Below, piece by piece: positions 2,097 to 56,138 of a stretch of 64,000 nucleotides of DNA. Made by a program: the position numbers and the translations under genes. Origin of the DNA: an uncultured Desulfobacteraceae bacterium (GTDB taxonomy: Bacteria > Desulfobacterota > Desulfobacteria > Desulfobacterales > JALSRD01). Below the pieces are notes generated by a model that was given only the letters and a program-made list of their open reading frames with translations, did not search any database and was not told where the DNA came from. The DNA lies in NCBI GenBank assembly GCA_964476595.1, contig CAYZCL010000053.1:40690-104689 (forward strand), given 5' to 3'. How positions within the stretch are numbered: position 1 is the stretch's first letter; each line of letters starts with the position of its first letter.

Positions 2097-2147
2097 GGCA
2101 AAACCCGCAGGCGAAGCGGGGTTGAAGGTTTTTGGGCAGCGCCGGCA

Positions 2148-2212
2148 TGTTGCATTTTTGCACCTGCTGGCAGATTTGCCACGTCGCCGGGGTCGCCTTG
2201 TTGCATTTTTGC
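2148..2212 (+). promoter_or_regulatory. Pair of identical 14-bp direct repeats TGTTGCATTTTTGC, candidate upstream activator sites
   Basis: Exact copies at 2148..2161 and 2199..2212, 51 bp apart (about five helical turns). They lie 150-230 bp upstream of a sigma-54-type promoter. Confidence 0.4.
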
Positions 2213-2364
2213 GACTACGGCCCGCCTTCACACTTTCCGGTTCGTTGCGGCAGTGAATGACGGCCGCCGGAACCGGTTTTTCCCATGTATAACATGCCGG
2301 AATTACCAGCGTTCGGTTTTCCGGCGGCCGACGCTGGAGAGATGGGGTGTTTTCGGCGGTCGGA

Positions 2365-2380
2365 AGGCATGCTTTTTGCT
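2365..2380 (+). promoter_or_regulatory. Candidate sigma-54 (-24/-12) promoter for the glycyl-radical enzyme gene
   Basis: AGGCATGCTTTTTGCT aligns to TGGCACG-N4-TTGCW with the correct GG-N10-GC spacing. It sits 72 nt upstream of the ATG at 2452, and a canonical sigma-54 activator gene is adjacent. Confidence 0.55.
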
Positions 2381-2451
2381 CGGGTGTTGGGTGTGGGACG
2401 CCCGGATTGAAGGATCCGCAGGAATGAATCGACCGAAAGAGGGAGAAGAGG

Positions 2452-4932: not shown

Positions 4933-5016
4933 CGCCGCTTTTGAAAAACAGGCGGCGGATCGTTCCGGCGCGCGGTCGCGCCGGCTGTTACCGCCTTTGA
5001 AAGAGGCTCGGGTCGT

Positions 5017-5945
5017 ATGCCGCAAAACAACCAAAAGGGACTGATTTTCAACATTCAGAAGTACTCTGTGCACGACGGCCCGGGCATCCGCACGGTGGTT
5101 TTCTTTTCCGGCTGCCCCCTGCGCTGCAAGTGGTGCAGCAACCCGGAGTCCCAGTCCGGCCGGCCGCAGCTGTTCTACAACCGCAACAAGTGCATCACGC
5201 TGGACGAATGCCGCCGCTGCGTGGAGGTCTGCCCGGAATCCGCCATCGGGGCGGCCGAAGACCGCAGGGCGCACATCGACCGGGCCGCCTGCAGCGGCTG
5301 CCTGCTGTGCGCCGAGGCCTGCCCCGCCCAGGCGCTGCAGGTCTACGGGGAGGAAAAGACGGTGGCCCGGGTGCTCGAGCGCGTGGAGCAGGATGGTGTT
5401 TTCTACTCACGCTCGGGCGGAGGGCTTACTTTGAGCGGCGGCGAACCCATGCAGCAGCCGGCGTTTGCCGTGGCCCTGCTGCGCGAGGCCCGGCGGCGGC
5501 GCATCAACACCGCCATGGAAACCAGCGGGTTCTGCGCCGCGGAAGACCTGCTGTCCGCCTGCGAACACCTCGACTTCCTGCTCTACGACATCAAGGTGAT
5601 GGATCCGGATGTGCACCGGGAGGCCACCGGTGTTTCCAACGATCGCATTTTGCGAAATCTGGAGCAGGTGCGCCGCGCCCGTCCGCAGCTGCCCATCCTG
5701 GTGCGTACGCCCGTCATCCCGGGGGTCAACGACAGCCCCGGGGCCATCCGGGCGATCCTGGATTTTATCGGGGGATTCGAGAACCTGCACTACGAGATGC
5801 TTTCCTACCACCGCATGGGAAGCCCCAAGTACGCCTGCATCGGAAAGGACTACCCCATGGGGGACGTGGAACTGGGCGATGACGTGATGCCGGCGCTGAG
5901 GGAGTTGCTGGAAAACGAGTACGGCCACCTGCGCTTCTGCGGCCG

Positions 5946-5949
<4 letters not shown>
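5017..5949 (+). CDS. Glycyl-radical enzyme activating enzyme (radical SAM)
   Basis: CPLRCKWCSNPES radical-SAM cluster motif, plus an insert with two ferredoxin-like Cys motifs (CRRCVEVCP, CSGCLLCAEACP). Lies immediately downstream of the GRE. Confidence 0.9.
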
Positions 5950-7409
<1,460 letters not shown>

Positions 7410-7649
7410 GTGCGCCTCTCGCTTTGAAACCCGCATAGGTTGCCGCGGCGGTCACGATTCGTTGTAACGGCCGGCCGTTGAAAAGTCAACGCGCCGCCGC
7501 GGGGTACCGCATTTCCCCGCCGGGTAGGTCGAAAGTGACGGCCCGGCGTCGGAAGCGGTGTTCAGGCCGATTGAAATGTGCTATGGGTCGTCCTTAGACA
7601 GACCCGGTCCCCCGTGTGAAGCCATCACAACCAGAAAGGTGCGCCCGTC

Positions 7650-8504
7650 ATGAAGAACGTACTTGCCATCCTGGCATCCCCCCGCAAGCTGGGCAACAGC
7701 GAGGTCATGGCCAAGGAGATCAGCCGCTGCCTTTCCGAGCCCCATGAGCTCAATCTCCTGCGGCTGTCGGATTTCGACATTCAACCCTGTACCGGCTGCT
7801 ACCGCTGCCTGTTCAAGGAGCAGCGTTGCATTTTAAAGGACGATCTCCACATCATCCTGGACGCCATCGCCCGCGCCGATGCCCTCATCCTGGCGGTGCC
7901 TACCTACATGCTGGGCGCCAACGCCGTGCTCAAGGTCTTTCTGGACCGGGGGCTCGCCTTTTACGGCTATGCCGGGCGCCTGTGGGAAAAACCGGCCGTA
8001 GGCGTGGCCATTGCCGGCATCCGGGGCATGGAGGGATACACGCCGTTGATGGTCGAAAGCTTTCTCAAGATGATGCTGTGCGACATCAAACAGGTGCGCA
8101 CGGTGTACGGGGCGCTGCCCGGCGAGGTGTTCACCACGCCGGAAAACCGGCAGGCCGCCGCCGAGATGGCCGCGGCCCTGACGGCGCCGACCCCGGAAAA
8201 GGCTTCCTATGCCTGTCCGCTGTGCGGCGGGCAGACCTTCCGTTTCCTGGGCGGGGACCGCGTCAAGTGTATGCTGTGCAGCAACGACGGGCGGCTGCGC
8301 ATGGAAGACGGCCGGCCGTCGGTGGACATCCGCCGCGGCGATCACGTGCTGTTCCTGAGCCGGGAGGAGGCCCTGGCGCACGCCGACTGGCTGCGCAACA
8401 TGAAGGACCGTTTCCTGCAACAGAAGGAGGCCCTGAAAAAGATCGCCCTGGATTACCGTCGGGACGGGCGCTGGGTCACGCCTAAAGCCCCAGGACCTGA
8501 TTGA
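7650..8504 (+). CDS. Iron-sulfur flavoprotein (Isf / NADPH-dependent FMN reductase family) with C-terminal zinc-ribbon-like extension
   Basis: Flavodoxin-like N-terminus MKNVLAILASPRKLGNSE. Compact CX2CX2CX6C motif (CTGCYRCLFKEQRC). C-terminal CPLCGG...CMLCSN pairs. Confidence 0.6.
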   Translation: MKNVLAILASPRKLGNSEVMAKEISRCLSEPHELNLLRLSDFDIQPCTGCYRCLFKEQRCILKDDLHIILDAIARADALILAVPTYMLGANAVLKVFLDRGLAFYGYAGRLWEKPAVGVAIAGIRGMEGYTPLMVESFLKMMLCDIKQVRTVYGALPGEVFTTPENRQAAAEMAAALTAPTPEKASYACPLCGGQTFRFLGGDRVKCMLCSNDGRLRMEDGRPSVDIRRGDHVLFLSREEALAHADWLRNMKDRFLQQKEALKKIALDYRRDGRWVTPKAPGPD

Positions 8505-9135
8505 TCAGCACCACCTTGACGCGCCCCCCGGGAAACGATTTTTCGGTGATGGTCCAGGTGTTGCAGATGCGCTGGGGACTTTTACACTGTTCGCAGACCG
8601 AGGTCTTGGCGCAGGGGGTCTTCATGTCCAGGCGCATGGCGTTGGCCGGGGCGGCGAACTCCTTGATACGCCACATGGCGTCTTCCAGGTCGGCCACCAG
8701 CTTGTTGGCGCCCACCAGCACCACCACATGGCGGGGGCCGAAGGTCAGCGCCGCCACGCGGTTGCCGATCATGTCCAGGTTGACCAGCCGGCCGTCTTCG
8801 GTCACGGCGTTGCAGCCGGTCAGGTAGAGGTCCGCCAGCAGGGCCCGGCGGCGGCGCTCGAGCTTTTCCGTGTCGGACAGGCCTTTTTCGTAGGGGTCGA
8901 TGACCTCGATGCCGTCCATTTGCCGGAAATCGTCCATGAGGCCCGTGGCGCCGAGCGTCATGGAACCACCCCATGAGACACTCCCGGCCCGGACGGCGGG
9001 CAGCACCTGCTCCAGCACGACGCGGCGCGCAGCGGCGGCGTCGTCGGTCAGGTGGACTTCGAAGTTGTTGGCCTCCAGGGCCTGCTTGAGCCGTTCGAGG
9101 CGCACGCGGCGGTAGTTTTCAACGGGATTTTCCAT
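8482..9135 (-). CDS. LUD domain-containing protein (LutC/YkgG-like lactate-utilisation family)
   Basis: 217 aa. Overall similarity by eye to DUF162/LUD proteins (GSVSWGGSMTL..., VVVLVGANKLV). Convergent 23-nt overlap with the Isf gene. Confidence 0.55.
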   Translation of the reverse strand: MENPVENYRRVRLERLKQALEANNFEVHLTDDAAAARRVVLEQVLPAVRAGSVSWGGSMTLGATGLMDDFRQMDGIEVIDPYEKGLSDTEKLERRRRALLADLYLTGCNAVTEDGRLVNLDMIGNRVAALTFGPRHVVVLVGANKLVADLEDAMWRIKEFAAPANAMRLDMKTPCAKTSVCEQCKSPQRICNTWTITEKSFPGGRVKVVLINQVLGL

Positions 9136-9280
9136 GCTCAGCCATCCTGTGTCAAGGTGTGTAGATGATGAATCGGATCAGCGATAGACGCGTCTCCTGT
9201 TTAACACGGAAACCGCGCTCCCTACAAGGGATGGCACGGCCGGAAGCCCGGAAGGCGTCCGTGGGAGTGAAGCCGATTTC

Positions 9281-10864
9281 ATGAAACCGCGCATCGCCGA
9301 CCTGAAAAGAGCCCTGCTGGCCGTGGCCGGCGGCCTGCTGCTGACGGCCGCTTTTCCGCGCCTGGAGCTGGCCTGGGTGGCCTGGGCGGCGCTGCTGCCG
9401 CTGATGTTCGCCGTTCGCGGCCTGTCGGCCCGGGAAGGTTTCCGCATGGGTATCCTGGCCGGCCTGGCCCACTACATGACGCTCGTGTACTGGCTGGTGA
9501 TCACCATGAACACCTACGGCGGGCTGCCCAAGTCACTGTGCGGGCCGATCCTCTTTCTCTTTGCCGCCTACCTGGCGATCTATCCGGCCCTTTTCGCCGC
9601 CGGCTTCGCCGTCCTCTCGTCGCGGCCGGCGCTGTGCCTGGCAGTGGCCCCGGCGCTCTGGACGGCCCAGGAGTACCTGCGCGCCTTCATGTTGTCCGGC
9701 TTTCCCTGGGAACTGCTGGGCTATTCCCAGTACCGCCAGCTGAAACTCATCCAGGTGGCCGACATGACCGGTGTCTACGGCGTATCCTTCGTCATCGTGC
9801 TGGTCAACACGGCAGCCTTCCTGCTGCTGTCGGGCCTGCCGGCCCTGAAGCCCCCGCGAGCGACGGTCTCCGCCGGGCTGCGCATGACGGCCGTGGGGCT
9901 GGTGGTGGTGGTGCTCGGCGGTGTGCTGGGCTACGGGCAGTGGCGCATGGGCGCGGTGGACCGGCGCGCGGCCGCCGCCGCGGCCAAAACGGTCAGCCTG
10001 CTGCAGGGAAACATCGACCAGAGCATCAAGTGGGATCCGGCCCACCAGGAGGCCACCCTGAAGATATACTTTCGCCTGGCCCGCAAAGTGCTGCCGCGCA
10101 AGCCGGACCTGATCGTGTGGCCCGAGACGGCGGCGCCCTTTTACTTCGGCAACGACCGTCGGCTGACACGCATGCTGCAGCACGGGGTGGCCGAGCTGGG
10201 CGTTTACCAGCTCGTCGGCAGCCCCCTGGTGCTGGGGCGCGCCGAGGAGTATCTTTTTTACAACAGCGCCTTTCTGCTGCGCCCCGACGGCACTGTCGCC
10301 GGCCGTTACGACAAGGCCCACCTGGTGCCCTTCGGCGAATACGTGCCTTTCAAGAAGTACCTGCCCTTCCTGGGAAAGATCGTCGAACAGGTGGGGGATT
10401 TCCAGGCCGGCCGGCGCGGGGCCACCATCGCGTGGGAAGGCCATCACCTCGGTGTCCTGATCTGCTATGAGCTGATCTTCGCCGATCTTTCACGCGCCGC
10501 GGCGGCCAACGGCGCCGACCTGCTGGTCAACATTACCAACGACGCCTGGTACGGCCGCTCCGGCGCCCCTTACCAGCATTTTTCCATGGCGGTGCTGCGG
10601 GCCGTTGAGACACGACGCACCCTGGTACGGGCGGCCAACACCGGCATCAGCGGGGTCATCGGGCCCGCCGGGCGCATCCTGGCGCGCACCCCGATCTTCG
10701 AAGAGGCGGTCGTCACCCGCCGGGTGCCCCTGCTGACCGAAAAGAGCCTCTACGTGCGCGTGGGCGATGCCTTTGCCGTGACCTGCCTGGCGGTTTCGGT
10801 GATCTGCCTGCTGTGGCTGGGGCTTGTGACGCATCGTGCTGCGGGGGGCGGGCCCCGTGGCTGA
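9281..10864 (+). CDS. lnt: Apolipoprotein N-acyltransferase
   Basis: 527 aa. N-terminal multi-TM region followed by a CN-hydrolase domain with WPE(T), KxHLVPFGEYVP and ICYE catalytic E-K-C elements. Confidence 0.85.
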   Translation: MKPRIADLKRALLAVAGGLLLTAAFPRLELAWVAWAALLPLMFAVRGLSAREGFRMGILAGLAHYMTLVYWLVITMNTYGGLPKSLCGPILFLFAAYLAIYPALFAAGFAVLSSRPALCLAVAPALWTAQEYLRAFMLSGFPWELLGYSQYRQLKLIQVADMTGVYGVSFVIVLVNTAAFLLLSGLPALKPPRATVSAGLRMTAVGLVVVVLGGVLGYGQWRMGAVDRRAAAAAAKTVSLLQGNIDQSIKWDPAHQEATLKIYFRLARKVLPRKPDLIVWPETAAPFYFGNDRRLTRMLQHGVAELGVYQLVGSPLVLGRAEEYLFYNSAFLLRPDGTVAGRYDKAHLVPFGEYVPFKKYLPFLGKIVEQVGDFQAGRRGATIAWEGHHLGVLICYELIFADLSRAAAANGADLLVNITNDAWYGRSGAPYQHFSMAVLRAVETRRTLVRAANTGISGVIGPAGRILARTPIFEEAVVTRRVPLLTEKSLYVRVGDAFAVTCLAVSVICLLWLGLVTHRAAGGGPRG

Positions 10865-11203
10865 ACCGTCGCCGCGCGGCGGAAAAACCGGCCGCCCACG
10901 GGGAGGGTCCCTGCTGCGGCCGGAAGACCCACGACGCCGCTTCTCCGCGGGGATCGGCGGCATGGTCGTAATTTTTCAACCGAAACCGAGGGTTTCAAAG
11001 AATTGAAACGCTTCGCCCGGGAGGCCGGTTCTCAGGACCGGTGACGCGTTGAAGCCGTCGGGGACGTACGCACGGCAAGGCGCGTAAATTTCGGCATGCC
11101 GGGAAATGCCGTGGTTTTCGCAAGGCCGCCGGACGGGCGGCACGGGCGGATGAGTACCGTCGCGACGAGGCGTCGGGTCACCCGGGTAAAAAAGAGAGGT
11201 TTC

Positions 11204-12592
11204 ATGACAACCGATGGAAATCTGCACCTCGGGCGGCAGCGCGATTTTCTGCAGGCCGTGTTGAATGCCACCGACATCGGCATCCTGGTGGTCGACCGAA
11301 GCGGTCCGGTGCTGTTCACCAACGACCGCCTGTCCGAAGTATGGAACTATTCCGGAGCGCTGGCGGATGGGCGGCAATACGGACAGCCGTTGCTTCGGCA
11401 CATGCTGGGGCAGCTGAAAGAACCGGGGGTCCTGTCGTCGGACCCGGGTGCTTTCGGCCGCATTTCCGCGCAGATGGCGGCCGAGGCGGAACTCAAAGAC
11501 GGCCGCGTGCTGGAGATCCTCGCCGGACCGTTGGTTATCGACGGGCTGGCCACCGGTGGTGTCTACCAGTTCCGGGATGTCACCGAACGCTGTGAGGCCG
11601 CCGGGGCGCTGCGGGAGCGGGAAGCCTACTACCGGGAGGAGAACCGGCGTCTGCGGGCGGGCATGGGGGAGCGCTGGCGGCTCGGCGGCATGATCGGGAA
11701 GAGCCCGGCGATGCAGGCCGTCTTCGAAGGCGTTCTCAGGGCCGCGGCCTCCGACGCCGCCGTGCTGATCACCGGCGAGGCGGGCACCGGCAGGGAACTG
11801 GCCGCACGGACCATCCACGACCTGAGCGATCGCCGGGGGGCACCTTTCCGGGTGGTGGCATGCGGGAGCCTTGACGAGGCTGCGCCGCGGGGGGGAAATG
11901 CAAAGCGGAACGGAAACGGCAGGCGGGCGCCCGACGGCGGGTTGAACGGCCTGATGGACATGGCCCCGGGAGGGACTCTTTTCCTGGACGAGGCGGAGCG
12001 GGCCGGGCTGGAAACCCAGCGCCGGCTCCTGCGTGTCCTTGACGGCGGCGCCGGAAACCCGGGTGTTCGCCTGATCGCCGGCAGCCGCCGGGATCTCTCG
12101 GCGCTGGTGGAAAACGGCGCCATGCGCCGTGACTTTTTCTATCGCATCCAGACACTCGCCATCCACCTGCCGCCGCTGCGTGAACGCAGGGAGGACATCC
12201 CGCTGCTGGTCGACCATTTTCTCCGGCAGCTCGGCGACACCCAGGACCGGGGAGCGGTCATGGGCGCCGTTCTCGCTGAGATGATGCGGCGTGACTGGCC
12301 GGAAAACGTCCGCGAGTTGAAGCAGGCGCTGCGGCGTTTTCTGAACGACCGGGCGGAAGCGCAAACATCGGCGACGGCCGCAGCGACGGGGGCCGACACG
12401 CTCGGGGGGGTATTGCGGGAAGCGTCGGGTGACGCCTATCGCATCGCCATGGAGAACTTCGAAAAAAGCCTGTTCCTGAAGGCTCTGGAACGCCACCGCT
12501 GGCATCGGGCGGAAGCCGCCCGGGCACTGGGGCTTCCGTTGAGAACCTTTTACCGCAAGATGCAGCGCCTGGGTCTGAGTCGGCGCAAATAG
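11204..12592 (+). CDS. PAS-domain regulator with degenerate sigma-54-activator (AAA+) core and Fis-type HTH
   Basis: Start at ATG 11204 after an AAGAGAGG RBS. Walker A reads GEAGTGRE (Lys replaced by Arg). No GAFTGA; the region reads APRGGNAKRNGNGRRAPDGG. GGTLFLDEAE, LPPLRERREDIPLL and the C-terminal HTH (AARALGLPLRTFYRKM) are retained. Confidence 0.75.
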   Translation: MTTDGNLHLGRQRDFLQAVLNATDIGILVVDRSGPVLFTNDRLSEVWNYSGALADGRQYGQPLLRHMLGQLKEPGVLSSDPGAFGRISAQMAAEAELKDGRVLEILAGPLVIDGLATGGVYQFRDVTERCEAAGALREREAYYREENRRLRAGMGERWRLGGMIGKSPAMQAVFEGVLRAAASDAAVLITGEAGTGRELAARTIHDLSDRRGAPFRVVACGSLDEAAPRGGNAKRNGNGRRAPDGGLNGLMDMAPGGTLFLDEAERAGLETQRRLLRVLDGGAGNPGVRLIAGSRRDLSALVENGAMRRDFFYRIQTLAIHLPPLRERREDIPLLVDHFLRQLGDTQDRGAVMGAVLAEMMRRDWPENVRELKQALRRFLNDRAEAQTSATAAATGADTLGGVLREASGDAYRIAMENFEKSLFLKALERHRWHRAEAARALGLPLRTFYRKMQRLGLSRRK

Positions 12593-12959: not shown

Positions 12960-14061
12960 ATGTCCGTGGAACTGAAACAGACCGTCAAGGAGCTCAAGGA
13001 AAAACTGGAACAAATGAAGGAGTATCTTTGACCTGGCCGGCAAAGAAAAACGGCTGGCCGAAATCGAACAGCTGACCGCCAAGGCCGACTTCTGGGAAGA
13101 CCAGGAAAAAGCCACCGCCGTGCTCAAGGAGCGGCGCCTGATCGCCAGTAAGGTGGAGACCTTCCGGCAACTGGAGACCGATCTGGAAGACAGCGAGGTG
13201 CTGTTGGAGCTGGCCCTCGACGAGCACGAGGAGGATGCCCTGCAGGAGGCCGCCGGGCAGATCGCCGACATCGAAAAGCGTGTCGACCAGTTCTCCTTCG
13301 ATCTCATGCTCGATGACCCCGAGGATCCCAGCAACGCCATTGTCTCCATCAATGCCGGCGCCGGCGGCACCGAGGCCCAGGACTGGGCCGAAATGCTATT
13401 TCGCATGTACATGCGCTGGGTGGAGCACAAGGGGTTTTCGGCCAAGGTGCTGGACATGCAGCCCGGCGACGAAGCGGGCATCAAGAGCGTGACCTTCACC
13501 GTCACCGGCGACTACGCCTACGGTTACCTGAAAACCGAACGCGGGGTGCACCGCCTGGTGCGCATCTCGCCCTTCAATGCCAGCGGCAAGCGACACACCT
13601 CCTTCGCGTCGGTCTTCGTCTATCCCGAGCTGGACAACGAGATCGTGGTGGAGATCGACGAAAAAGACCTGCGGGTGGACGTCTTTCGCGCCAGCGGTGC
13701 CGGTGGACAGCACGTCAACAAGACCAGCAGCGCGGTGCGCATCACGCACCTGCCCACGGGCATCGTGGTGCAGTGCCAGCAGGAGAAATCCCAGCACCGC
13801 AACCGCGACCTGGCCATGAAGGTGCTCAAGTCCCGGCTCTACCAGCTGGAGAAACAGAAGCAGCGGGAGAAGATGCAGGAGATTCACGACAGCAAGGACG
13901 ACATCGCCTGGGGCAGCCAGATCCGGTCGTACGTGCTGCACCCTTACCAGATGGTCAAGGACCACCGCACCAACTTGGAAGTCGGCAACGTCAACGGTGT
14001 GCTGGACGGAGACCTGGACCCCTTTATCGAGAGCATGCTGCTGCTGGAGCAGCGCAAGTAG
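12960..14061 (+). CDS. prfB: Peptide chain release factor 2, with programmed +1 ribosomal frameshift (join 12960..13028, 13030..14061)
   Basis: Short frame-0 ORF MSVELKQTVKELKEKLEQMKEYL ends at an in-frame TGA (13029..13031) within AAGGAG-TAT-CTT-TGA-C. The +1 frame continues into ORF 13120..14061, which carries SPF (RISPFNASG) and GGQ (SGAGGQHVNKT) motifs. Confidence 0.9.
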
Positions 14062-14086: not shown

Positions 14087-15466
14087 ATGATGAAAGATCT
14101 GACGGAAGAACAGCGCAGGGCATTGGCGGAGATGACCGCCCCGGACCGGTTTTCCACGGGGGACTCCAACCGCGAGCTGCACCGCTTCGACTTTTCCCAC
14201 CACCGGGGCGTGCCGCCGGCCGGCGTCATCTGGCCGCTGTCCACCGAGGAGGTCTCCCGTATCCTGACCTGGTGTTACGCGCAGAAGGTGGCGGTGTTCC
14301 CCTGGGGGGCCGGCACCAGCATCGAGGGAAACCCGGTGCCCACCTGTCCCGGGCTGGTGATGGACCTGACGCGCATGGACCGGGTGCTGGCCATCCGCCC
14401 CGAGGACCTGCAGGCCGACGTGCAGCCCGGCGTGCTGCGGCGTTCGCTCAACCGTGAAGCCGGCCGCCACGGACTTTTCTTTCCCCCCGACCCGGGGGCC
14501 GACGCCACCATCGGCGGCATGATCGCCAACAACGCCTCGGGGGTGCGCACCGTCAAATACGGCGCCACCCGGGACTACGTCCTGCGCCTGACCGTGGTGT
14601 TGCCCCGGGGCGACGTGATTCACACCGGCTGCCGGGCGCCCAAGTCGTCTTCGGGATACGACCTGACACGGCTGTTCGTGGGTTCCGAAGGCACCCTGGG
14701 CGTGGTCACCGAGGCCACCCTGCGGCTGACGGGCATCCCCGCCCACCACCTGTCGGCGGTGGTCACTTTCAGGGAATTGCACGATGCCTCCAAAGCCGTG
14801 GCCATGCTCATTGCCTCCGGGCTGGATCCCGCGGCCCTGGAGCTCCTGCCGGCCAACCTGATCGCGCTGATCAACCGCGAAAAGGGACTGGGCCTACCCG
14901 AAATGCCGTCGCTTTTCTGTGAGTTTCACGGGGTCAGTCCCGCGGCGCTGGAAGAAACCGCCGCCCTGGCGAAAGAGGTCTGCGAGGACTGCGGGGCCAC
15001 CGATTTCAAGAGCGGGGTTTCGGCCGCCGAACGCCAGCGCCTGTGGCAGGCGCGCCACGAGGCCGCGGAAACCATCCTGCGTGCCCATCCCGGCGACAAG
15101 TCGCTGACCGTGGACGCCGCCGTGCCCATTTCACTGTACCCCGAGATGATCCTCTTCGCCCAGCAGGTGGTGGCCGAAGAGGGCGTCGTGGGGTACGTTT
15201 TCGGCCACGCCGGCGACGGCAACCTGCACGTGGTCATGCCCGGCAACCCCGAAGACACGGAGACCTGGTCCCACGTGGAGGCCGTCAACGAACGCATCGT
15301 CAAACGGGCCGTGGACCTAGGCGGCACCTGCACCGGGGAACACGGCATCGGCATCGGCAAGCGCAGGTTCATGCGGCGCGAACACGGCGACAGCTATGAC
15401 CTCATGCGCCGCATCAAGGAACTGATGGATCCCAAAAACCTGATGAACCCGGGAAAGATGTTCTGA
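14087..15466 (+). CDS. FAD-linked oxidase (GlcD / D-lactate dehydrogenase family)
   Basis: Start trimmed to ATG 14087, after the prfB stop. FAD_binding_4-type region (VFPWGAGTSIEGN), C-terminal oxidase domain, HGIGIGKRRFM motif. Confidence 0.8.
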   Translation: MMKDLTEEQRRALAEMTAPDRFSTGDSNRELHRFDFSHHRGVPPAGVIWPLSTEEVSRILTWCYAQKVAVFPWGAGTSIEGNPVPTCPGLVMDLTRMDRVLAIRPEDLQADVQPGVLRRSLNREAGRHGLFFPPDPGADATIGGMIANNASGVRTVKYGATRDYVLRLTVVLPRGDVIHTGCRAPKSSSGYDLTRLFVGSEGTLGVVTEATLRLTGIPAHHLSAVVTFRELHDASKAVAMLIASGLDPAALELLPANLIALINREKGLGLPEMPSLFCEFHGVSPAALEETAALAKEVCEDCGATDFKSGVSAAERQRLWQARHEAAETILRAHPGDKSLTVDAAVPISLYPEMILFAQQVVAEEGVVGYVFGHAGDGNLHVVMPGNPEDTETWSHVEAVNERIVKRAVDLGGTCTGEHGIGIGKRRFMRREHGDSYDLMRRIKELMDPKNLMNPGKMF

Positions 15467-15530
15467 CCGCCATGCGTGCGCACAGGCTTTGTTTCTGTCG
15501 GCGTTTTCCGGGCCGGCCGGAGATGCGGCC

Positions 15531-16811
15531 ATGACGATCGTGGAAATTCCCTTTGGCGGAGAACCGCTCGCCTTCGAGGTGCCCGCCGGAAACCTGGCCC
15601 GGGTTCTCCACCCGGCGGCGGCGGTGCCGCTGGCCGACCTGGATACGGAGATCGGCAGGGCGCTGGACCACCCCATCGGACAGCCGCCGCTGTCGCGGCG
15701 GGTCAGGCCCGGGGACCGGGTGGTGCTGGTGAGCGACGACAACACCCGGTTGACGCCGACCGACCGCATCCTGCCGCCCCTGCTGGAGCGCCTCAACGCT
15801 GCCGGTGTCCCCGACGCAAACATCACCTGCCTCATGGCCCTGGGGACCCACCGTTACATGACCGAAGAGGAAATGATCGCCAAGGTGGGCCGGGCGGTGT
15901 TCGGGCGCATCCGGGTGCGCAACCACCGCTGGCAGGATCCCGGAGAACTGGCCGACCTCGGCGTTTCCGCCCTGGGCACCCCCATCGAGATCAACCGGCA
16001 CGTGGCGGCCGCCGACGTGGTCATCGGCATCGGCGCCATCGTGCCGCACCACATTCCCGGCTACAGCGGCGGGTCCAAGATCATCCAGCCGGGCGTCTGC
16101 GGCCCCCGGACCACGGCGCACACCCACATGCTCTCGTGCGAGGGCGGCGGGGATTCCTTCCTCGGCATCGAGGACAACCCCGTGCGCCGCGACATGGACG
16201 ACATGGCCGACCGGGTGGGGATGGAAACCATTTTCAACGTGGTCATGGACCCCGCCGGCGCGGTTGCTGGCATTTTTTTCGGCGACGTGCGTGCGGCTTT
16301 CCGGGAAGGCGTACGGCTGGCGCGCCGCATCTACGGGGTGCCTTACCGGGAGACCCCTGACATCGTGGTGGCCAACTCGCACCCCTGCGACCTGGATTTC
16401 TGGCAGTCGCACAAGGCCCAGTACCCGGCCCAGCGCATGGTCCGTCCGGGTGGCACCATCATTTTATGCACGCCGGCCCCGGAAGGGGTCAGCCCGGTGC
16501 ACCGTGAACTGCTGGACTACACGGCCTGGCCCTCGGAGAAGATCAAGGCCGCCTACCGTCGGGGAGAGCTGGAAAACGGCGTGGCCGCCGCCCTGGCCGT
16601 GGCCTGGGCCATGGTGCGCGAAAAGGCCGAAGTCATCATGGTGTCACCCGGCATCTCACCCGAGGACAAACGGCGGCTGGGTCACACCCACGCGCCCGAC
16701 GTCCCTGCGGCGCTCGAGATGGCTTTCGAGTGCCAGGGCCCCGCGGCCCGTGTGACCGTGCTGACCCACGCCCCGGACCTGCTCCCCGTCAAAGTCGATG
16801 GAGAACCCTGA
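15531..16811 (+). CDS. LarA-family nickel-pincer-dependent 2-hydroxyacid racemase/epimerase homolog
   Basis: Start at ATG 15531 (MTIVEIPFG). DDNTRLTP, ALGTHR, and IVPHHIPGYSGGSKII...AHTH match the LarA catalytic His / Lys-tether / His pattern. Confidence 0.75.
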   Translation: MTIVEIPFGGEPLAFEVPAGNLARVLHPAAAVPLADLDTEIGRALDHPIGQPPLSRRVRPGDRVVLVSDDNTRLTPTDRILPPLLERLNAAGVPDANITCLMALGTHRYMTEEEMIAKVGRAVFGRIRVRNHRWQDPGELADLGVSALGTPIEINRHVAAADVVIGIGAIVPHHIPGYSGGSKIIQPGVCGPRTTAHTHMLSCEGGGDSFLGIEDNPVRRDMDDMADRVGMETIFNVVMDPAGAVAGIFFGDVRAAFREGVRLARRIYGVPYRETPDIVVANSHPCDLDFWQSHKAQYPAQRMVRPGGTIILCTPAPEGVSPVHRELLDYTAWPSEKIKAAYRRGELENGVAAALAVAWAMVREKAEVIMVSPGISPEDKRRLGHTHAPDVPAALEMAFECQGPAARVTVLTHAPDLLPVKVDGEP

Positions 16812-16856
16812 GAGCCGCACGGCGGCCGACTCACCTGCAAAGGAGGCGATCGATTC

Positions 16857-17882
16857 ATGTCTGCATCCCAACGCCCGTTGCTGGGCATCACCATGGGCGA
16901 CCCCGGCGGGATCGGTCCCGAGATCTGCGTCAAGGCCCTGGCGCGTGACGATATCTACCGGATCTGCCGGCCGCTGATCATCGGGGATGCGCAGATCCTG
17001 CGCAACGCCGCCGATTTCTGCGACGGCCCCGGCGACATCCGGGCCTGCCGCCGTCCCGCGGAGGGCCGTTACGCCCACGGCGGCATCGACGTGCTGGACC
17101 TGGCGAACCTGCCGCTTGCGCGACTGCGGCACAAGACGGTCACCGCCGAACAGGGACGGGCGTCTTTCGAGTACGTCAAAACGGTCATCGAACTGGCTTT
17201 GGCCGGCGATCTGGACGGCACGGTGACGGGCCCCATCAACAAGGAGGCCATCAACGCCGCCGGGTTCCACTACGCCGGGCACACCGAGATCTACGCCGAG
17301 CTGACCGGCACCCGCGACTATGCCATGATGCTGGCCGACAAGTCCTTCCGCGTGGTGCACGTATCCACCCACGTCTCTCTGCGCGAGGCCTGCGACCGGG
17401 TGAAAAAGAGGCGCGTGGAGACGGTCATCGACCTGACCCACGATGCGCTGCAGCGGCTGGGCATCGCGGCGCCGGTCATCGCCGTGGCCGGCCTCAACCC
17501 CCACTGCGGGGAGGGCGGCATGTTCGGCCACGAGGACGACCGCGAGATCGCGCCGGCGGTCGAGGCCGCCGCGGAGCGCGGCCTGCGGGTGGAGGGGCCC
17601 GTGCCGGCGGATACTGTGTTCTCCAAGATGCTGGGCGGCATGTACGATGCCGTGGTGGTCATGTACCACGACCAGGGTCACATCCCGGCCAAACTGGTGG
17701 GGTTTCGCTACAACGACCGCACCGGCGCCTGGGAGAACATGGCCGGCGTCAATGTCACCCTGGGGCTGCCCATCGTGCGCACATCGGTGGACCACGGCAC
17801 GGCCTTCGGCAAGGCCGGCGAGGGGCGTGCCAACCCCCAGTCCATGATCGAGGCCATCCGGCTGGCCGCCCAACTGGTCTGA
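16857..17882 (+). CDS. PdxA-family NAD-dependent 4-hydroxy(phospho)acid dehydrogenase
   Basis: ITMGDPGGIGPEI N-terminus, FHYAGHTE, YHDQGHIPAK and SVDHGTAFG metal-binding His motifs. AGGAGG RBS. Confidence 0.8.
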   Translation: MSASQRPLLGITMGDPGGIGPEICVKALARDDIYRICRPLIIGDAQILRNAADFCDGPGDIRACRRPAEGRYAHGGIDVLDLANLPLARLRHKTVTAEQGRASFEYVKTVIELALAGDLDGTVTGPINKEAINAAGFHYAGHTEIYAELTGTRDYAMMLADKSFRVVHVSTHVSLREACDRVKKRRVETVIDLTHDALQRLGIAAPVIAVAGLNPHCGEGGMFGHEDDREIAPAVEAAAERGLRVEGPVPADTVFSKMLGGMYDAVVVMYHDQGHIPAKLVGFRYNDRTGAWENMAGVNVTLGLPIVRTSVDHGTAFGKAGEGRANPQSMIEAIRLAAQLV

Positions 17883-17903
17883 GCTGTGTGGGGACCTGCG
17901 ATC

Positions 17904-18452
17904 ATGGATGCCGAAGCCCTGCTCAGCGCCCACTACCCGACGTCATCGAAGGCCTGGCGTATCCTTGTGGATCACGGGCGTCAGGTGGCGCGGAAGGCCT
18001 TGCGGGCCGCCGCGGCCGTGGGGCACCTGTCGCCGGACACCGTGTTCATCCGCCAGGCCGCCCTGTTGCACGACATTGGTATCCGCTACACCGACGCCCC
18101 CGGGTTGGGCTGCACGGGAAAATACCCTTACATCTGCCACGGCTACCTGGGGCGCGAACTGCTGGAAAAAGAGGGCTTTCCCCGCCACGCGCTGGTCTGC
18201 GAACGCCACGTGGGCGTGGGCATCTCGCGCGGGGACATCATCCGCCAGGGGCTTCCCCTGCCCCTGCGCGACATGCTGCCCGTGACCATCGAGGAGCAGA
18301 TCGTGTGCTACGCCGACAAATTTTTCTCCAAGAGCGGCGACGAGCCGGCAAGGGAGAAGAGCGTGACCGAAATCGCCCGCGGGCTCTCGCGCCACGGGGC
18401 CGACAAGGCCGAGAAGTTCCTGCGCTGGGCCGCGCTGTTTGGCGACGCCTGA
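17904..18452 (+). CDS. HD-domain phosphohydrolase
   Basis: AALLHDIG HD motif with downstream His/Asp residues. Start uncertain: 17886 alternative codon or ATG 17904. Confidence 0.65.
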   Translation: MDAEALLSAHYPTSSKAWRILVDHGRQVARKALRAAAAVGHLSPDTVFIRQAALLHDIGIRYTDAPGLGCTGKYPYICHGYLGRELLEKEGFPRHALVCERHVGVGISRGDIIRQGLPLPLRDMLPVTIEEQIVCYADKFFSKSGDEPAREKSVTEIARGLSRHGADKAEKFLRWAALFGDA

Positions 18453-18456
18453 ACCC

Positions 18457-18493
18457 AAAAAAAGGCCGCCGGCAGGTGATCCCGCCGACGGCC
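18457..18493 (-). terminator. Rho-independent terminator downstream of nfnB
   Basis: On the minus strand, GGCCGUCGGC-loop-GCCGGCGGCC (10-bp stem, one G.U pair) is followed by U7 (A7 at 18457..18463 on the plus strand). It starts 29 nt after the nfnB stop. Confidence 0.7.
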
Positions 18494-18521
18494 CGATGGC
18501 TTGGTATTGATTTGTTTGCGG

Positions 18522-19934
18522 CTACCAGCCCCAGGTCAGGTACTCGTGGATGGAATCGGCGGCCTTGCGGCCGGCGCCCATGGCCAGGATGACGGTGGCC
18601 GCGCCGGTGACGATGTCGCCGCCGGCCCACACGCCGCGGCGCGTGGTCTTGCCGGTCTCCGGCTGGGCCAGGATGTAGCCCCACTTGTTGAGCTCCAGTC
18701 CCGTGGTGGTCTCGGTGAGCAGCGGGTTGGCGCCGGAGCCCACGGCCACGATGGCCAGGTCGCACTCCAGCTCGAACTCCGAGCCCTCGATGGGCACCGG
18801 ACGGCGGCGGCCGGACTCGTCCGGTTCGCCCAGTTCCATGCGCAGGCACTCCATGCCCGTCAGGTGGCCCTTTTCGTCACCCAGGTAGCGGGTGGGGTTG
18901 GTCAGCAGGAAGAACTCGATGCCCTCTTCCTCGGCGTGGTGGATCTCGGCGGCGCGGGCCGGCATCTCCTCGCGCGAACGGCGGTAGACGATGCGCACGC
19001 GGTCGGCGCCCAGGCGCATGGCCGTGCGCGCCGAGTCCATGGCCACGTTGCCGGCGCCCAGCACCACCACGTCTTTGCCCTTGGGTACGGGGGTGTCGTA
19101 CTTGGGGAACAGGTAGCCCTTCATCAGGTTGGTGCGCGTCAGGTACTCGTTGGCCGAGAGTACGCCGATGAGGTTTTCGCCGGGAATGTTGAGAAAGCGC
19201 GGCAGCCCCGCGCCCACACCCACGTAAACCGCGTCGTAGCCCTGCTCGAAGAGTTCGTCCACGGTCACCGAACGGCCCACCACCGCGTTGCAGACCACCT
19301 CGACACCCTGTTTCTCCAGCGTGTGGATCTCCTGGGCCACGATGTCCTTGGGCAGCCGGAACTCGGGAATGCCGTAGACCAGCACGCCGCCGGGTTTGTG
19401 GAAGGCCTCCAGCACGGTGACCTCGTGCCCCTTGGCGATCAGGTCGCCGGCCACGGTGAGGCCCGAGGGGCCCGATCCCACCACGGCCACTTTCTTGCCG
19501 GTGGGCTTGGCGCGGGCCGGCAGCGTGCCGGTCCCGTGTTCGCGCTCCCAGTCAGCCGCGAAGCGCTCGAGGTTTCCGATGGCCACCGGTTCACCCTTCT
19601 TGGCCAGGATACAGTTGCCCTCGCACTGCAGCTCCTGGGGACAGACCCGACCGCAGACCGCCGGCAGGGCGTTCTTGGTCCACAGGTTGTGGGCGGCGCC
19701 GGAGAAGTCGCCCTCCAGGATCAGGTGGATGAAGCCGGGGATGTCCACGCTCACCGGGCATCCCTTGACGCAGCCGGGGTTGCGGCACTGCAGGCAGCGG
19801 GCGGCCTCCTCCCGGGCCAGCTCGGGGGTGTAACCCAGGGGTACTTCGTCGAAATTACGGCGTCTGATTTCAGGTTTCTGCTCCGGCATGGGCTGCCGGG
19901 GGATCTTTTTCTTCTTTGAAGACTGTTGAGCCAT
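18522..19934 (-). CDS. nfnB: NADPH-dependent oxidoreductase large subunit (NfnB / GltD / SudA family)
   Basis: N-terminal Cys clusters (CLQCRNPGCVKGCP...CPQELQCEGNC) and two Rossmann motifs (VAVVGSGPSG, VVVLGAGNVAMD). The second ATG is chosen because AGGAGG abuts the first. Confidence 0.8.
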   Translation of the reverse strand: MAQQSSKKKKIPRQPMPEQKPEIRRRNFDEVPLGYTPELAREEAARCLQCRNPGCVKGCPVSVDIPGFIHLILEGDFSGAAHNLWTKNALPAVCGRVCPQELQCEGNCILAKKGEPVAIGNLERFAADWEREHGTGTLPARAKPTGKKVAVVGSGPSGLTVAGDLIAKGHEVTVLEAFHKPGGVLVYGIPEFRLPKDIVAQEIHTLEKQGVEVVCNAVVGRSVTVDELFEQGYDAVYVGVGAGLPRFLNIPGENLIGVLSANEYLTRTNLMKGYLFPKYDTPVPKGKDVVVLGAGNVAMDSARTAMRLGADRVRIVYRRSREEMPARAAEIHHAEEEGIEFFLLTNPTRYLGDEKGHLTGMECLRMELGEPDESGRRRPVPIEGSEFELECDLAIVAVGSGANPLLTETTTGLELNKWGYILAQPETGKTTRRGVWAGGDIVTGAATVILAMGAGRKAADSIHEYLTWGW

Positions 19935-19982
19935 GGTCATTCCTCCTGGGGCTGGTAAAATACCGTCTGGCGGCGCGCCGTC

Positions 19983-20849
19983 TTACTTCTTTTCGACGTT
20001 GCTGAACAGCAGCGATTCCGAGTCGTGCAGCCGGCAGTAATCCTCGTAGCACTCCTTTTCCTGTTCGACATAGGACTGCAGGCGTTTCATGAGCTCGTCG
20101 TAGTCCACCTGGTGCCCGTCGAACTCCGGTCCGTCCACGCAGGCGAAACGGGTTTTACCGCCCACGCTCACCCGGCAACAACCACACATGCCGGTGCCGT
20201 CGACCATGATGGGGTTGAGGCTCACCAGGGTCCGGACCCCGTACTCTTCGGTGATCTTGGAGACGAACTTCATCATGGGCACCGGGCCGATGGCCACTAC
20301 CAAGGCGATGTCCCCCTTGTCGAGGAGCTGCTTGAGCACATCGGTGACGAAGCCGTGATGGCCGTAGGACCCGTCGTCGGTGCAGACGAATAGCTCATGG
20401 GAGGCGGCCTTCATGTAATCTTCCAGGATGAGCAGATCCTTGGTGCGGGCGCCGATGATGGCCTTGACGTGGTTGCCGGCTTCTTTGAGCCCGCGGGTGA
20501 TGGGGTGCAGCACGGCGATGCCGGTACCGCCGCCCACGCACACCACGTTGCCGAACTTCTCGATGTGGGTGGGTTTGCCCAGCGGGCCGATGACGTCCTG
20601 GTAAGCCTGGCCCACCTTGAGGTCCCGGAACAGGGCCGTGGTCTTGCCCACCACCATGTAGATGATGGTGATGGTCCCTCTGTCGGGGTCGGTCATGGCC
20701 ATGGTCAGGGGAATGCGCTCTCCCTCCTCGGTGGCTTTCAGGATGACGAACTGCCCCGGTTTCGCCTTGCGGGCGATCAACGGTGCCTCGATTTCATTGA
20801 GAATCACGGTACCGTCTGCCATTTCCTCGCGTTTTACGATTTTGAACAT
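19983..20849 (-). CDS. nfnA: Ferredoxin-NADP reductase-like small subunit (NfnA / SudB / PyrK family)
   Basis: FAD/NAD-binding fold (VCVGGGTGIA) and C-terminal 2Fe-2S motif GMCGCCRV...CVDGPEF. GGAGGG RBS. Lies directly upstream of nfnB. Confidence 0.8.
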   Translation of the reverse strand: MFKIVKREEMADGTVILNEIEAPLIARKAKPGQFVILKATEEGERIPLTMAMTDPDRGTITIIYMVVGKTTALFRDLKVGQAYQDVIGPLGKPTHIEKFGNVVCVGGGTGIAVLHPITRGLKEAGNHVKAIIGARTKDLLILEDYMKAASHELFVCTDDGSYGHHGFVTDVLKQLLDKGDIALVVAIGPVPMMKFVSKITEEYGVRTLVSLNPIMVDGTGMCGCCRVSVGGKTRFACVDGPEFDGHQVDYDELMKRLQSYVEQEKECYEDYCRLHDSESLLFSNVEKK

Positions 20850-27053: not shown

Positions 27054-28175
27054 TCAATCGCGGCGGGCTCTCAATTTCGAGAGGCCGTGAAGCAGGCGGC
27101 CGGCCGCCGGCTCGACGGCCTGCAGCGCCCCGTGGGGACAGACCTCGACGCAGCAGTAGCAACGGATGCAGCGCTCGTAGTCGAAACGCACCCCCCGGGG
27201 GGCGTCGGCGATGGCGCCGGCCGGGCAGTAGGTGCCGCACTGGCCGCACTGGCGGCAGCGCGCAGTGTCCACCACCGGCTTCTGCAGCACGTGGCGGCGC
27301 ATGAAACGGCTGACGGCCGGGGGGCCGAAGGTGGCCGGCGCCATGCGCGGCAGCATGAAATCGTCGACTACATGGAAATCGCCGCGCACGCTGGTTTCCG
27401 ACGGCAGCAGGCCGCGTTCTTCGGCGGCCCGGTGGGTGGCCAGGCGCCGCGGGTCGACCCCCAGCAGGCGGCACAGCACGGCGTCCACCGTCGGCGCGCT
27501 GCGCCCGCCGACGATGATGCCCAGCTGCCGCGGGGTGCCGCCGCGGCCCGGACCCTGCCCCTCCAGGGCGGTGATGCCGTCCACCAGGGTCAGGCAGGGG
27601 GCCACGGTGCGGTAGACGGCCACCAGCAATCGCGCGAACTGGTCGCGGTCGATGCCGCAGCGCAGGTGCCACCGGGGCTTGGCCAGCCCCACCACGCAGC
27701 CGAAGAGGTTCTTGACCCCCAGGGTGAGCATCATCTGGGTGTGGGTCTTGACCTTGGCCAGGTTGACCACGGCGTCGGCCGCCAGGGCCGCCGCGGCCAG
27801 CTCGATGCGCCCGAAAGGCGGGCCCACGTCCACGGTGCGGGCCTTTTCGAAGGGCTTCAGCGCCACGTCCAGGCCCGCCAGGGCCGCCGCGTAACCGGTG
27901 CGCCGCACCACCCGCTCGAAGGGCCCCACGGCCGGGCTGTCGGATACCCGGACGCGCACTTTTCGGGCCAGCAGGTACTCCACGACGGTGCGCACCACCA
28001 GCGGGTGGGTGACGATGCCCTCTTCGGGGCCGGCCGCCATCAGCAGGTTGGGTTTGACCAGCACCCGCATGCCGGGCATGAACAGGTCCCTCCCCAGGGT
28101 GTCGAGCATTTCGAACACCCGGGGGCGGATCTCGTCTTCGTTGTAGCGGCCTTTTTCGATCAGCACCGTTTCCAT
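27054..28175 (-). CDS. DUF362 domain protein with C-terminal 2x[4Fe-4S] ferredoxin domain
   Basis: Start trimmed to ATG 28175. VLVKPNLL and LKTHTQ-type DUF362 elements. C-terminal [12 protein letters not shown] and [12 protein letters not shown]. Confidence 0.6.
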
Positions 28176-28346
28176 GGGGTTTGCCTTTGTGCGCCGATGG
28201 GTATAGATAAGAGGCGCGCGGTCCGGCGCCTGTTCATGGACCGCGGCGGCTGCCGGGGCCGGCGGACGTCTGAAAGTGTTTTGTTTATACCACCGCCGTT
28301 TTACCATGTCAGCATCAAATCGGACCCCAACCCGTAACGAGGACGG

Positions 28347-29543: not shown

Positions 29544-29612
29544 CGCCGGCGGAGGCGGGAGAAGCCCGTTGGGGACGTTTTGCAAAATCATCAATTACCC
29601 GGGAGCGCGCCG

Positions 29613-30638
<1,026 letters not shown>

Positions 30639-55783: not shown

Positions 55784-56138
55784 TTTATATTCCGTATGAA
55801 AACAGTCCGGTTGATGGGTTGAACCAAACACAAGAATACCATAATCATCAAATGGCATAAATCCATGGGATTGGCGCCCGAAATCGCACCGATGGATCTT
55901 TTCGGCGGGCAAAAAAGAGCGGGTTCGGTGTCCGGCAAGGCCTGGATGAAGCTTGATATATACCGCCACGCGGCTTCATCTAGTTATAATCTTTTACCTT
56001 ACCGAGGGGGCCGGGCAGCGAATCGACGTCGGGCGCAGGATTTGAGCCGCGAAGTCGCCGGGAGCGCCGGTTGTTCCACTTCGGTCGATTGGCGCGGCGG
56101 CCGGCCACAGCGGCGTTTCGACCGGCCCCGTGCCCGTA

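Follow-up and report, generated by a model that had tools for sequence, protein, structure and literature searches.

A LarA homolog and a PdxA2-type dehydrogenase as a conserved pair in an uncultured Desulfobacteraceae bacterium: a predicted C2 epimerase of four-carbon acid sugars

What does a homolog of the lactate racemase LarA do beside a PdxA-family dehydrogenase? The question is raised by four co-directional genes in a 64,000-nucleotide stretch of DNA (the window) from an uncultured Desulfobacteraceae bacterium (contig CAYZCL010000053.1, positions 40,690 to 104,689 of the forward strand). They encode a GlcD-like enzyme linked to flavin adenine dinucleotide (FAD), the LarA homolog (here LarAH), the PdxA-family enzyme and a small HD-domain phosphohydrolase (Table 1). 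A first-pass annotation placed these four open reading frames (ORFs) in one co-directional stretch and assigned their enzyme families, and the ORF list and Pfam domains agree with it on both counts. It also read the genes as one co-functional block, serving either a lactate racemase with a D-specific oxidase or an uncharacterised hydroxyacid pathway. Our comparison with related loci leads to a different unit: it is the LarAH–PdxA pair, not the four-gene block. The reading that we prefer, and hold with moderate confidence, is that LarAH is a nickel-pincer-dependent C2 epimerase of D-erythronate and D-threonate, either free or as their 4-phosphates, which feeds a PdxA2-type decarboxylation to dihydroxyacetone phosphate (DHAP) and CO2. 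Gene context is our basis for the substrate, and which way the flux runs and whether the acid is phosphorylated are likewise inferred.

Related loci comprised 80 from a genome scan with the LarAH alignment and four from exact-protein look-ups. Retrieval relied on peptide patterns specific to the subfamily, and many of the loci are contigs of metagenome-assembled genomes (MAGs) whose taxonomic labels may be unreliable. In all, 85 loci carry LarAH orthologs, at 62–100% identity. Most belong to Desulfobacterota (Desulfobacterales, Desulfatibacillum, Desulfosarcina, Desulfofustis and Desulfarculia), and some to Candidatus Thiosymbion and Chromatiaceae. Downstream sequence reaches 3.5 kb or more at 65 loci, and at 59 of these a PdxA ortholog (62–95% identical) follows LarAH on the same strand. 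Between the two genes, 40 of these 59 loci have a DUF1537 kinase gene of about 1.25 kb. On the other side, where 56 loci offer 4.5 kb or more of sequence, a tripartite ATP-independent periplasmic (TRAP) transporter, DctPQM, ends with DctM directly before LarAH in 31. The full cluster is also carried by the isolates Desulfofustis glycolicus DSM 9705 and Dethiosulfatarculus sandiegensis. The genes beyond the transporter usually include a regulator of the DeoR or IclR type, a paralog of PanB and a second paralog of LarA, which passes the LarAH10 cut-off (620 vs 540); an IlvD paralog or GlcD/GlcF genes are frequently found downstream of PdxA. The genes can also be unlinked, as at locus L032, where the DUF1537 gene lies 6 kb from LarAH.

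Conservation of the neighbourhood thus holds for LarAH and PdxA but not for the two outer genes. Homologs of the HD gene at 60–65% identity, in Desulfonema magnum and a Desulfobacterales MAG, stand directly after prfB in the order lnt-prfB-HD, with neither LarAH nor PdxA nearby, and HD follows prfB directly at L085, L086 and L088, all of which lack LarAH. The order lnt-prfB-HD is a conserved housekeeping arrangement in the Desulfobacterales relatives (L085, L088), and HD is linked to PdxA in the window's clade only. From the prfB–HD adjacency in LarAH-less relatives we conclude that GlcD-LarAH-PdxA was inserted into an older prfB–HD pair and that HD is not a member of the pathway.

The GlcD-like gene is also loosely attached. 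Its adjacency to LarAH is confined to a narrow clade, the window with L081 and L082 (91% identity). Orthologs at 70–78% identity are mostly found in unrelated contexts, those at 71–75% being free-standing. The closest ortholog outside the clade (78%, at L089) lies immediately upstream of DeoR-PanB-DctP, and the gene flanks the ancestral cluster, probably without being an obligate part of the pathway. A conserved four-gene operon, and with it the co-functional block of the first-pass annotation, was therefore rejected. GlcD-type genes, some with GlcF, do recur beside the cluster at L020, L056, L070, L075 and L076, and these are 35–46% identical to the window's gene and to one another. We also rejected a glycolate oxidase GlcDEF: the protein scores 359 bits against a glcD equivalog cut-off of 568, no GlcE or GlcF partner adjoins the gene in the window, and among solved homologs the best is LDHD, the mitochondrial D-lactate dehydrogenase (PDB 8JDC), which matches over the full length with 366 bits. 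The JGI name of the orthologs is D-lactate dehydrogenase (cytochrome).

LarAH itself retains the LarA catalytic pattern, as had been noticed at the first pass. The motifs ALGTHRYM, VPHHIPGYSGGSK and TTAHTHM are present, and in a pairwise alignment D70, R73, H107, H173, K183, H199, Q292 and K295 correspond to D72, R75, H108, H174, K184, H200, Q295 and K298 of L. plantarum LarA. Among them are the two catalytic histidines, the lysine that tethers the nickel-pincer nucleotide, the nickel-ligand histidine, the Asp/Arg positions and the Gln/Lys carboxylate binders. All eight residues are invariant in 80 orthologs and 22 paralogs. Both the Lar_N and the LarA_C domain score above their Pfam cut-offs, and an AlphaFold model (predicted local distance difference test, 79) has template modelling (TM) scores of 0.73–0.81 to 2YJG, 9EID and 5HUQ.

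The substrate-specific models set LarAH apart from the characterised enzymes. It falls below every characterised NCBIfam equivalog cut-off by about 200 bits or more: 250.8 vs 460 bits for lactate racemase (NF033504), 302 vs 500 for malate racemase LarAH6, 263 vs 462 for LarAH5 and 285 vs 540 for LarAH10. At the positions of LarA Phe175 and Phe176 it has His174 and Ile175 (polar, smaller). Arg219, Arg302, Lys380 and several histidines are invariant in the LarAH clade and missing from the LarAH10-type paralog, relative to which LarAH also has an 8-residue insertion before Trp359. By sequence, the pocket would fit a polar or anionic side chain, which is no proof of a phosphate site. More than 1,300 homologs were found at E<=1e-20, and the top 120 among the matches listed are 69–100% identical. 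Full-length relatives reach 48% identity at best in a library clustered at 50%; there the closest out-group (P0361, 48%) has only LysM and YchF neighbours, on a short contig. LarAH therefore belongs to a tight, widespread ortholog group.

The window's PdxA resembles PdxA2 more than the PdxA of vitamin B6 synthesis. Its PDB matches are 2HI1 (PdxA2) with 290 bits, 6E85 (D-threonate 4-phosphate dehydrogenase) with 278 and E. coli PdxA (1PS6) with 188. It has the P-[IL]-N-K-E motif of PdxA2 (GPINKEA in the window, APLNKEA in PdxA2) where E. coli PdxA has GPVHKGV instead. It is PdxA2-like, of the 4-phospho-D-threonate dehydrogenase type. It misses the PdxA2 equivalog NF002891 (320 vs 583 bits) and the remaining PdxA equivalog models (381 vs 470, 291 vs 378, 239 vs 425, 236 vs 476 and 178 vs 376 bits). 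The adjoining DUF1537 kinase that characterises PdxA2-type contexts is absent from the window and present in most relatives. An 11-residue insertion, RYNDRTGAWEN, follows HDQGHIPAK (window 17700–17740, PdxA residues about 284–296), beside the metal-binding motif HDQGH. All 65 LarAH-linked PdxA copies carry the pattern F-x-Y-[DN]-x-x-T-x-x-W-x-x after HDQGHIPxK, and the solved PdxA and PdxA2 structures all lack the insertion. One insertion common to every linked copy marks LarAH–PdxA as a co-inherited module.

The chemistry of the two families suggests how the module might work. Proton-coupled transfer of a hydride to a tethered nickel-pincer nucleotide is how LarA-superfamily enzymes invert 2-hydroxyacids at C2 (PMC7583248, PMC11851776), and D-threonate is broken down to DHAP and CO2 by PdxA2 together with a DUF1537 kinase (PMC7954711, PMC9997740). 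The kinase of the related loci matches DUF1537 acid-sugar models only (D-threonate kinase, 221 bits; 3-oxo-tetronate kinase, 104). The DctP of the cluster is closest to PDB 4PDD, 4P9K/4PAK, 4PDH and 4NQ8 (226–239 bits). As a group, these structures are reported as D-erythronate or pantoate binders (PMC5812351, PMC11668362). The conserved partners of LarAH, which are a transporter of the erythronate/pantoate type, a kinase of the tetronate type and a decarboxylase of the PdxA2 type, together point to an erythronate/threonate C2 epimerase.

D-Erythronate and D-threonate differ at C2 alone. PdxA-type chemistry requires a 3-hydroxyl, which suits erythronate and threonate; pantoate has none and was rejected as the substrate of the LarAH-kinase-PdxA arm, though it is still possible for a PanB/LarAH10 arm. 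Such an arm is suggested by the full cluster, where PanB, the LarAH10-type racemase and often IlvD pass their curated cut-offs (L051, at 999–12305; L066, L020, L002 and about 35 other loci). It might serve pantoate-like or 2,3-dihydroxy acids, for example through a dehydratase and a reverse PanB reaction yielding a 2-oxoacid and methylene-tetrahydrofolate.

In the pathway that we propose, the covalently tethered nickel-pincer nucleotide of LarAH would take a hydride from C2 and return it, flipping the 2-hydroxyl of the four-carbon acid sugar. The PdxA2-type enzyme would oxidise the 3-hydroxyl of 4-phospho-D-threonate with nicotinamide adenine dinucleotide (NAD+), and the resulting 3-oxo acid would give DHAP and CO2. 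The complete form, seen in most relatives, consists of the TRAP transporter with its D-erythronate/pantoate-type binding protein, LarAH, the DUF1537 kinase and PdxA. The first-pass suggestion of an uncharacterised hydroxyacid pathway is thereby tied to 4-phospho four-carbon acid sugars, by the kinase that so often separates LarAH from PdxA and by the PdxA2-like character of the latter.

The window holds a trimmed form of this cluster, with the regulator, PanB and TRAP lost between GlcD and LarAH and the kinase lost between LarAH and PdxA. Relatives of the L081/L082 type have the same gene order as the window, and the 91%-identical block is also found in the assembly GCA_027031205.1. In L084, an 84% relative, a fused 517-aa ORF (539–2092) lies upstream of LarAH-PdxA-HD and joins a truncated GDP-L-fucose synthase (fcl; model positions 2–188 of 308) to DctM residues 122–425, its C-terminal three quarters. 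Directly 5' of LarAH, this fcl'-'dctM ORF looks like the deletion scar of a TRAP operon. Because L084 has a truncated dctM and L089 has GlcD before DeoR-PanB-DctP, the window's order is the canonical GlcD-[DeoR-PanB-DctPQM]-LarAH-[kinase]-PdxA minus two deletions. When 80 LarAH orthologs are joined in a neighbour-joining tree, the kinase-containing state comes out as ancestral, and the kinase was lost independently at least twice: in the window's clade, which nests beside L002 and L007 (both with the kinase), and in a group of about 22 loci with a divergent GatZ-like gene. LarAH–PdxA adjacency was retained through both. Within the kinase-less window clade, the ratio of nonsynonymous to synonymous substitution rates (dN/dS) is 0.126 against L081 and 0.125 against L084 for LarAH, and 0.103 and 0.113 for PdxA, at dS of 0.3–0.9. 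Ratios of about 0.1 indicate that both genes are maintained under purifying selection.

How might a pair stripped of kinase and transporter be fed? A distant kinase and transporter encoded elsewhere could supply it. Alternatively, the pair may act directly on phosphate esters, LarAH converting 4-phospho-D-erythronate to 4-phospho-D-threonate. We lean slightly towards 4-phosphate esters as the LarAH substrate, because the kinase was repeatedly lost while the pair was kept under selection, because the window has neither kinase nor transporter, and because the kinase of the relatives scores below the D-threonate kinase cut-off (221 vs 450 bits). We raise only as a tentative possibility the more specific proposal that LarAH is a 4-phospho-D-erythronate/4-phospho-D-threonate 2-epimerase that forms, with the insertion-bearing PdxA, a self-sufficient two-enzyme shunt from endogenous 4-phosphoerythronate to DHAP and CO2. 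4-Phosphoerythronate is both a vitamin B6 intermediate and a toxic by-product of erythrose-4-phosphate oxidation. The shunt could serve metabolite repair or overflow, a role that would account for the pair outliving the loss of kinase and transporter.

Several observations weigh against an erythronate/threonate epimerase. LarAH has no adjoining PdxA at six of the 65 loci, and its best NCBIfam match is the malate racemase LarAH6. The kinase, with its low score, may act on something other than D-threonate, and the PanB, IlvD and LarAH10-type paralogs of the full cluster point to further substrates, possibly branched. HMMER pairwise and MAFFT family alignments conflict near residues 350–360 (LarA Trp358/Thr359), which makes the mapping of the C-terminal pocket uncertain. 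PdxA passes the cut-off of the broad pdxA model TIGR00557 (345.5 vs 290.35 bits), in keeping with a vitamin B6 role. Transporter, kinase and regulator are all absent from the window, and the pathway as drawn is incomplete there. Cofactor supply is a further difficulty: larB, larC and larE were not found by Pfam scans of the 64 kb window, nor in the conserved cluster of the relatives. We know of no LarA-family enzyme that acts on tetronates or on phosphorylated acids, which also counts against the lean towards phosphate esters, as does the unlinked DUF1537 gene of L032.

Some of these points would suit LarAH acting on another 2-hydroxyacid (malate, tartrate, a pentonate, a hexonate or a pantoate-like branched acid) with PdxA on a non-canonical substrate. 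Its best family models are those of LarAH6 and LarAH10, the full cluster holds PanB, IlvD and a LarAH10-type racemase, and the closest solved binding proteins bind pantoate too (PMC5812351). A non-phosphate member of the PdxA family exists (terephthalate dihydrodiol dehydrogenase, 4ATY), and the clade-specific insertion beside the metal-binding motif could shift specificity. However, even the closest of the equivalog cut-offs, that of LarAH6, is missed by some 200 bits, the DUF1537 kinase between the genes at 40 loci argues for a phosphorylated acid sugar of the four-carbon type, and pantoate offers no 3-hydroxyl for oxidation; we consider this explanation unlikely. Vitamin B6 synthesis would give the genes other roles: PdxA as a genuine 4-hydroxythreonine-4-phosphate dehydrogenase, GlcD as a PdxR-like, FAD-dependent 4-phosphoerythronate dehydrogenase in place of PdxB, and LarAH as the supplier or balancer of 4-phosphoerythronate. 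Besides the TIGR00557 score, it could draw on precedent, since the GlcD-family PdxR replaces PdxB in S. meliloti and DVU0826/0827 are needed for B6 synthesis in Desulfovibrio (PMC10102598, PMC9997740); many Gracilicutes lack both PdxB and PdxR, and PdxA2 is capable of the PdxA reaction (PMC9997740). The recurrence of GlcD-type genes beside the cluster is a further point for it, offset by their low identity. The window's PdxA is far nearer to PdxA2 and D-threonate-4-phosphate dehydrogenase than to bona fide PdxA, and its orthologs occur in inducible-looking catabolic clusters with TRAP, a DeoR/IclR regulator and a kinase. With an LDHD-like GlcD that has no Fe-S partner and whose orthologs mostly occur in unrelated contexts, and with no pdxJ or serC-like partner found in the block, we regard a B6 route as weakened and unlikely.

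The remaining two explanations fare worse. LarAH as a lactate racemase would turn L-lactate into D-lactate for the neighbouring D-lactate dehydrogenase, making both enantiomers usable. The LDHD-like sequence and JGI name of the GlcD-type gene fit this, many LarAH orthologs are called 'nickel-dependent lactate racemase' in databases, and the organism resembles the sulfate reducers, among which the use of lactate is common. Yet LarAH lies far below the lactate racemase cut-off and has lost both pocket phenylalanines, its conserved partners are PdxA, DUF1537 and TRAP, the adjacency to GlcD is as narrow as that to PdxA is broad, and no lactate permease or other lactate gene was found in the conserved cluster. 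We give almost no credence to this interpretation, with which the first-pass annotation had begun. It is hardly more plausible that a catabolic cluster has decayed and left the pair as a functionless remnant that survives by chance. Kinase, regulator and transporter have indeed gone, and L084 bears the scar. Against decay, both ORFs are intact with all invariant residues kept, the low dN/dS was measured within the kinase-less clade itself, and the second, independent kinase-less clade keeps the same pair.

An erythronate/threonate epimerase would place the pair close to the D-threonate pathway of DtnK and PdxA2, reportedly described by Zhang et al. in PNAS in 2016. The two share a PdxA2-type enzyme (the window's being closest to 2HI1 and 6E85), a DUF1537 kinase and TRAP in the same operon in the 40 related loci, and DHAP and CO2 as expected products. 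They differ in that a LarA-type nickel epimerase is integral here, and more strongly conserved, that PdxA has the insertion and misses NF002891, and that the kinase is below the DtnK cut-off in the relatives and, like the transporter, missing from the window. The LarA superfamily includes LarA, the malate racemase Mar2/LarAH6, the gluconate 2-epimerase GntE and LarAH10 (PMC7583248, PMC11770544, PMC11851776). LarAH has the same domains, fold (TM about 0.8) and catalytic and cofactor residues, and the same C2 inversion is expected; it differs in its sub-threshold scores, other pocket residues and PdxA/DUF1537 context. The PdxA/PdxR step of B6 synthesis (E. coli PdxA, S. meliloti PdxR, DVU0826/0827) is similar in setting a PdxA-family gene beside a GlcD-family gene around a shared hub, 4-phosphoerythronate. 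It is unlike the window in that here PdxA is PdxA2-type, GlcD resembles LDHD and has no Fe-S subunit, the context is catabolic and no pdxJ is nearby. Mitochondrial LDHD (8JDC) shares both FAD-oxidase domains with the GlcD-like protein, which is bacterial and is tied to LarAH by position (next to the ancestral cluster in L089) rather than by conservation.

Full-text searches and the supplements of two LarA superfamily papers yielded no published LarA–PdxA or LarA–DUF1537 link, and the PdxA/DUF1537 context is absent from the 2020 gene-context table of 25 LarAH groups and from the 2024 paper. Judged by sequence, the system would be a known type of pathway to which an enzyme superfamily, likewise known, adds a newly predicted activity. 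The prediction gives a specific reaction, erythronate/threonate-type C2 epimerisation, to a LarA subfamily that had no assigned substrate. If true, the DUF1537/PdxA2 tetronate pathway gains a nickel-pincer step in anaerobes. If a phosphate ester is the substrate, nickel-pincer chemistry would extend into sugar-phosphate metabolism and into how 4-phosphoerythronate is handled, and a phospho-epimerase would be the first known nickel-pincer enzyme on a phosphorylated substrate. The widely used labels 'nickel-dependent lactate racemase' and '4-hydroxythreonine-4-phosphate dehydrogenase PdxA' are probably wrong for the LarAH–PdxA clade; the second matters when gaps in the vitamin B6 pathway are called in Desulfobacterota.

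Table 1. Coordinates of the block, its upstream boundary and the hairpin downstream, in window positions
Feature	Coordinates	Strand	Basis
prfB, release factor 2 (upstream boundary of the block)	12961..14061	+	ORF/translation, frameshift motif
GlcD-like, FAD-linked D-2-hydroxyacid dehydrogenase, LDHD type	14087..15466	+	FAD_binding_4 E=3.8e-37, FAD-oxidase_C E=4.1e-56
LarA homolog (LarAH)	15531..16811	+	Lar_N E=2.4e-59 (200 bits), LarA_C E=1.7e-6 (28.5 bits)
PdxA-family dehydrogenase, predicted PdxA2 type	16857..17882	+	PdxA Pfam E=1.6e-105
Small HD-domain phosphohydrolase	17886/17904..18452	+	HD Pfam E=2.1e-7
14-bp GC-rich hairpin, between convergent HD and NfnB/SudA-like genes	18463..18494		Terminator scan

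Gaps between the genes are short (prfB–GlcD 25 nt, GlcD–LarAH 64, LarAH–PdxA 45, PdxA–HD 3–21). The hairpin likely ends the HD and NfnB/SudA-like transcription units; no credible terminator was found upstream of it in the block, where the scan for terminators and promoters was at chance level. HD likely starts at ATG 17904, giving 182 aa like its homologs, with GTG 17886 also possible. At least 7,889 HD homologs at E<=1e-10 were found among 8,000 candidates scored, and the top matches listed are about 57–90% identical. In prfB, a +1 programmed frameshift site (CTTTGAC, 13026–13032) follows the start ATG and a GGAG-like element, and for this reason the ORF finder shows only the downstream frame, from 13120. 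The lnt-prfB-HD order is interrupted twice in the window, by a sigma-54 activator (11096–12592) that splits lnt (9281–10864) from prfB and then by GlcD-LarAH-PdxA. Pfam scans and tblastn detected no LarB (AIRC), LarC (DUF111), LarE, PdxJ, DUF1537 or TRAP among the roughly 40 other genes of the window, which bears out the first-pass remark that larB, larC, larE and the DUF1537 kinase are absent.

Among the related loci, the large kinase-less clade has a GatZ/KbaZ-like gene (433 bits, below cut-off) divergent from LarAH-PdxA (L004, L006, L012 at 4776–6068, L022, L026, L033, L069, L078 and others). The GatZ/KbaZ family comprises tagatose-bisphosphate aldolase accessory proteins and sugar-phosphate epimerases. 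Downstream at these loci are genes for a SAM-methyltransferase-like protein and a NupC-like transporter, and PdxA is missing in L034, L043 and L071.

Elsewhere in the window, a DUF362 protein with a C-terminal 4Fe-4S dicluster domain (27054–28556, minus strand) is a distant LarA-fold relative, since PMC11770544 took DUF362 as outgroup for its tree of the LarA (DUF2088) superfamily. Next to the block, a gene pair at 18522–20849 (minus strand), GltD/SudA-like (Fer4_20 and Pyr_redox_2) and SudB/DHOD-B Fe-S-like, resembles an NfnAB-type NADH-dependent ferredoxin:NADP oxidoreductase and adjoins HD in the closest relatives L001, L081 and L082. A Beta_elim_lyase protein of the low-specificity threonine aldolase type (29580–30638) lies 12 kb from the block, with no link shown. 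In 'serendipitous' B6 routes, threonine-aldolase-type enzymes can combine glycolaldehyde and glycine into 4-hydroxythreonine. At 897–7436, an iron-containing alcohol dehydrogenase, a glycyl-radical enzyme (pyruvate formate-lyase-like, 826 aa), a radical-SAM activase and a divergent PAS/sigma-54 regulator form a candidate anaerobic catabolic unit of the diol or organosulfonate type. A lone LUD-domain (LutC-like) protein is encoded at 8482–9135 (minus strand), with no LutA or LutB partner nearby. Finally, two neighbouring dynamin-family GTPase genes (672 and 724 aa), a bacterial dynamin-like pair, are followed by an HAD hydrolase at 51939–55969 (minus strand).

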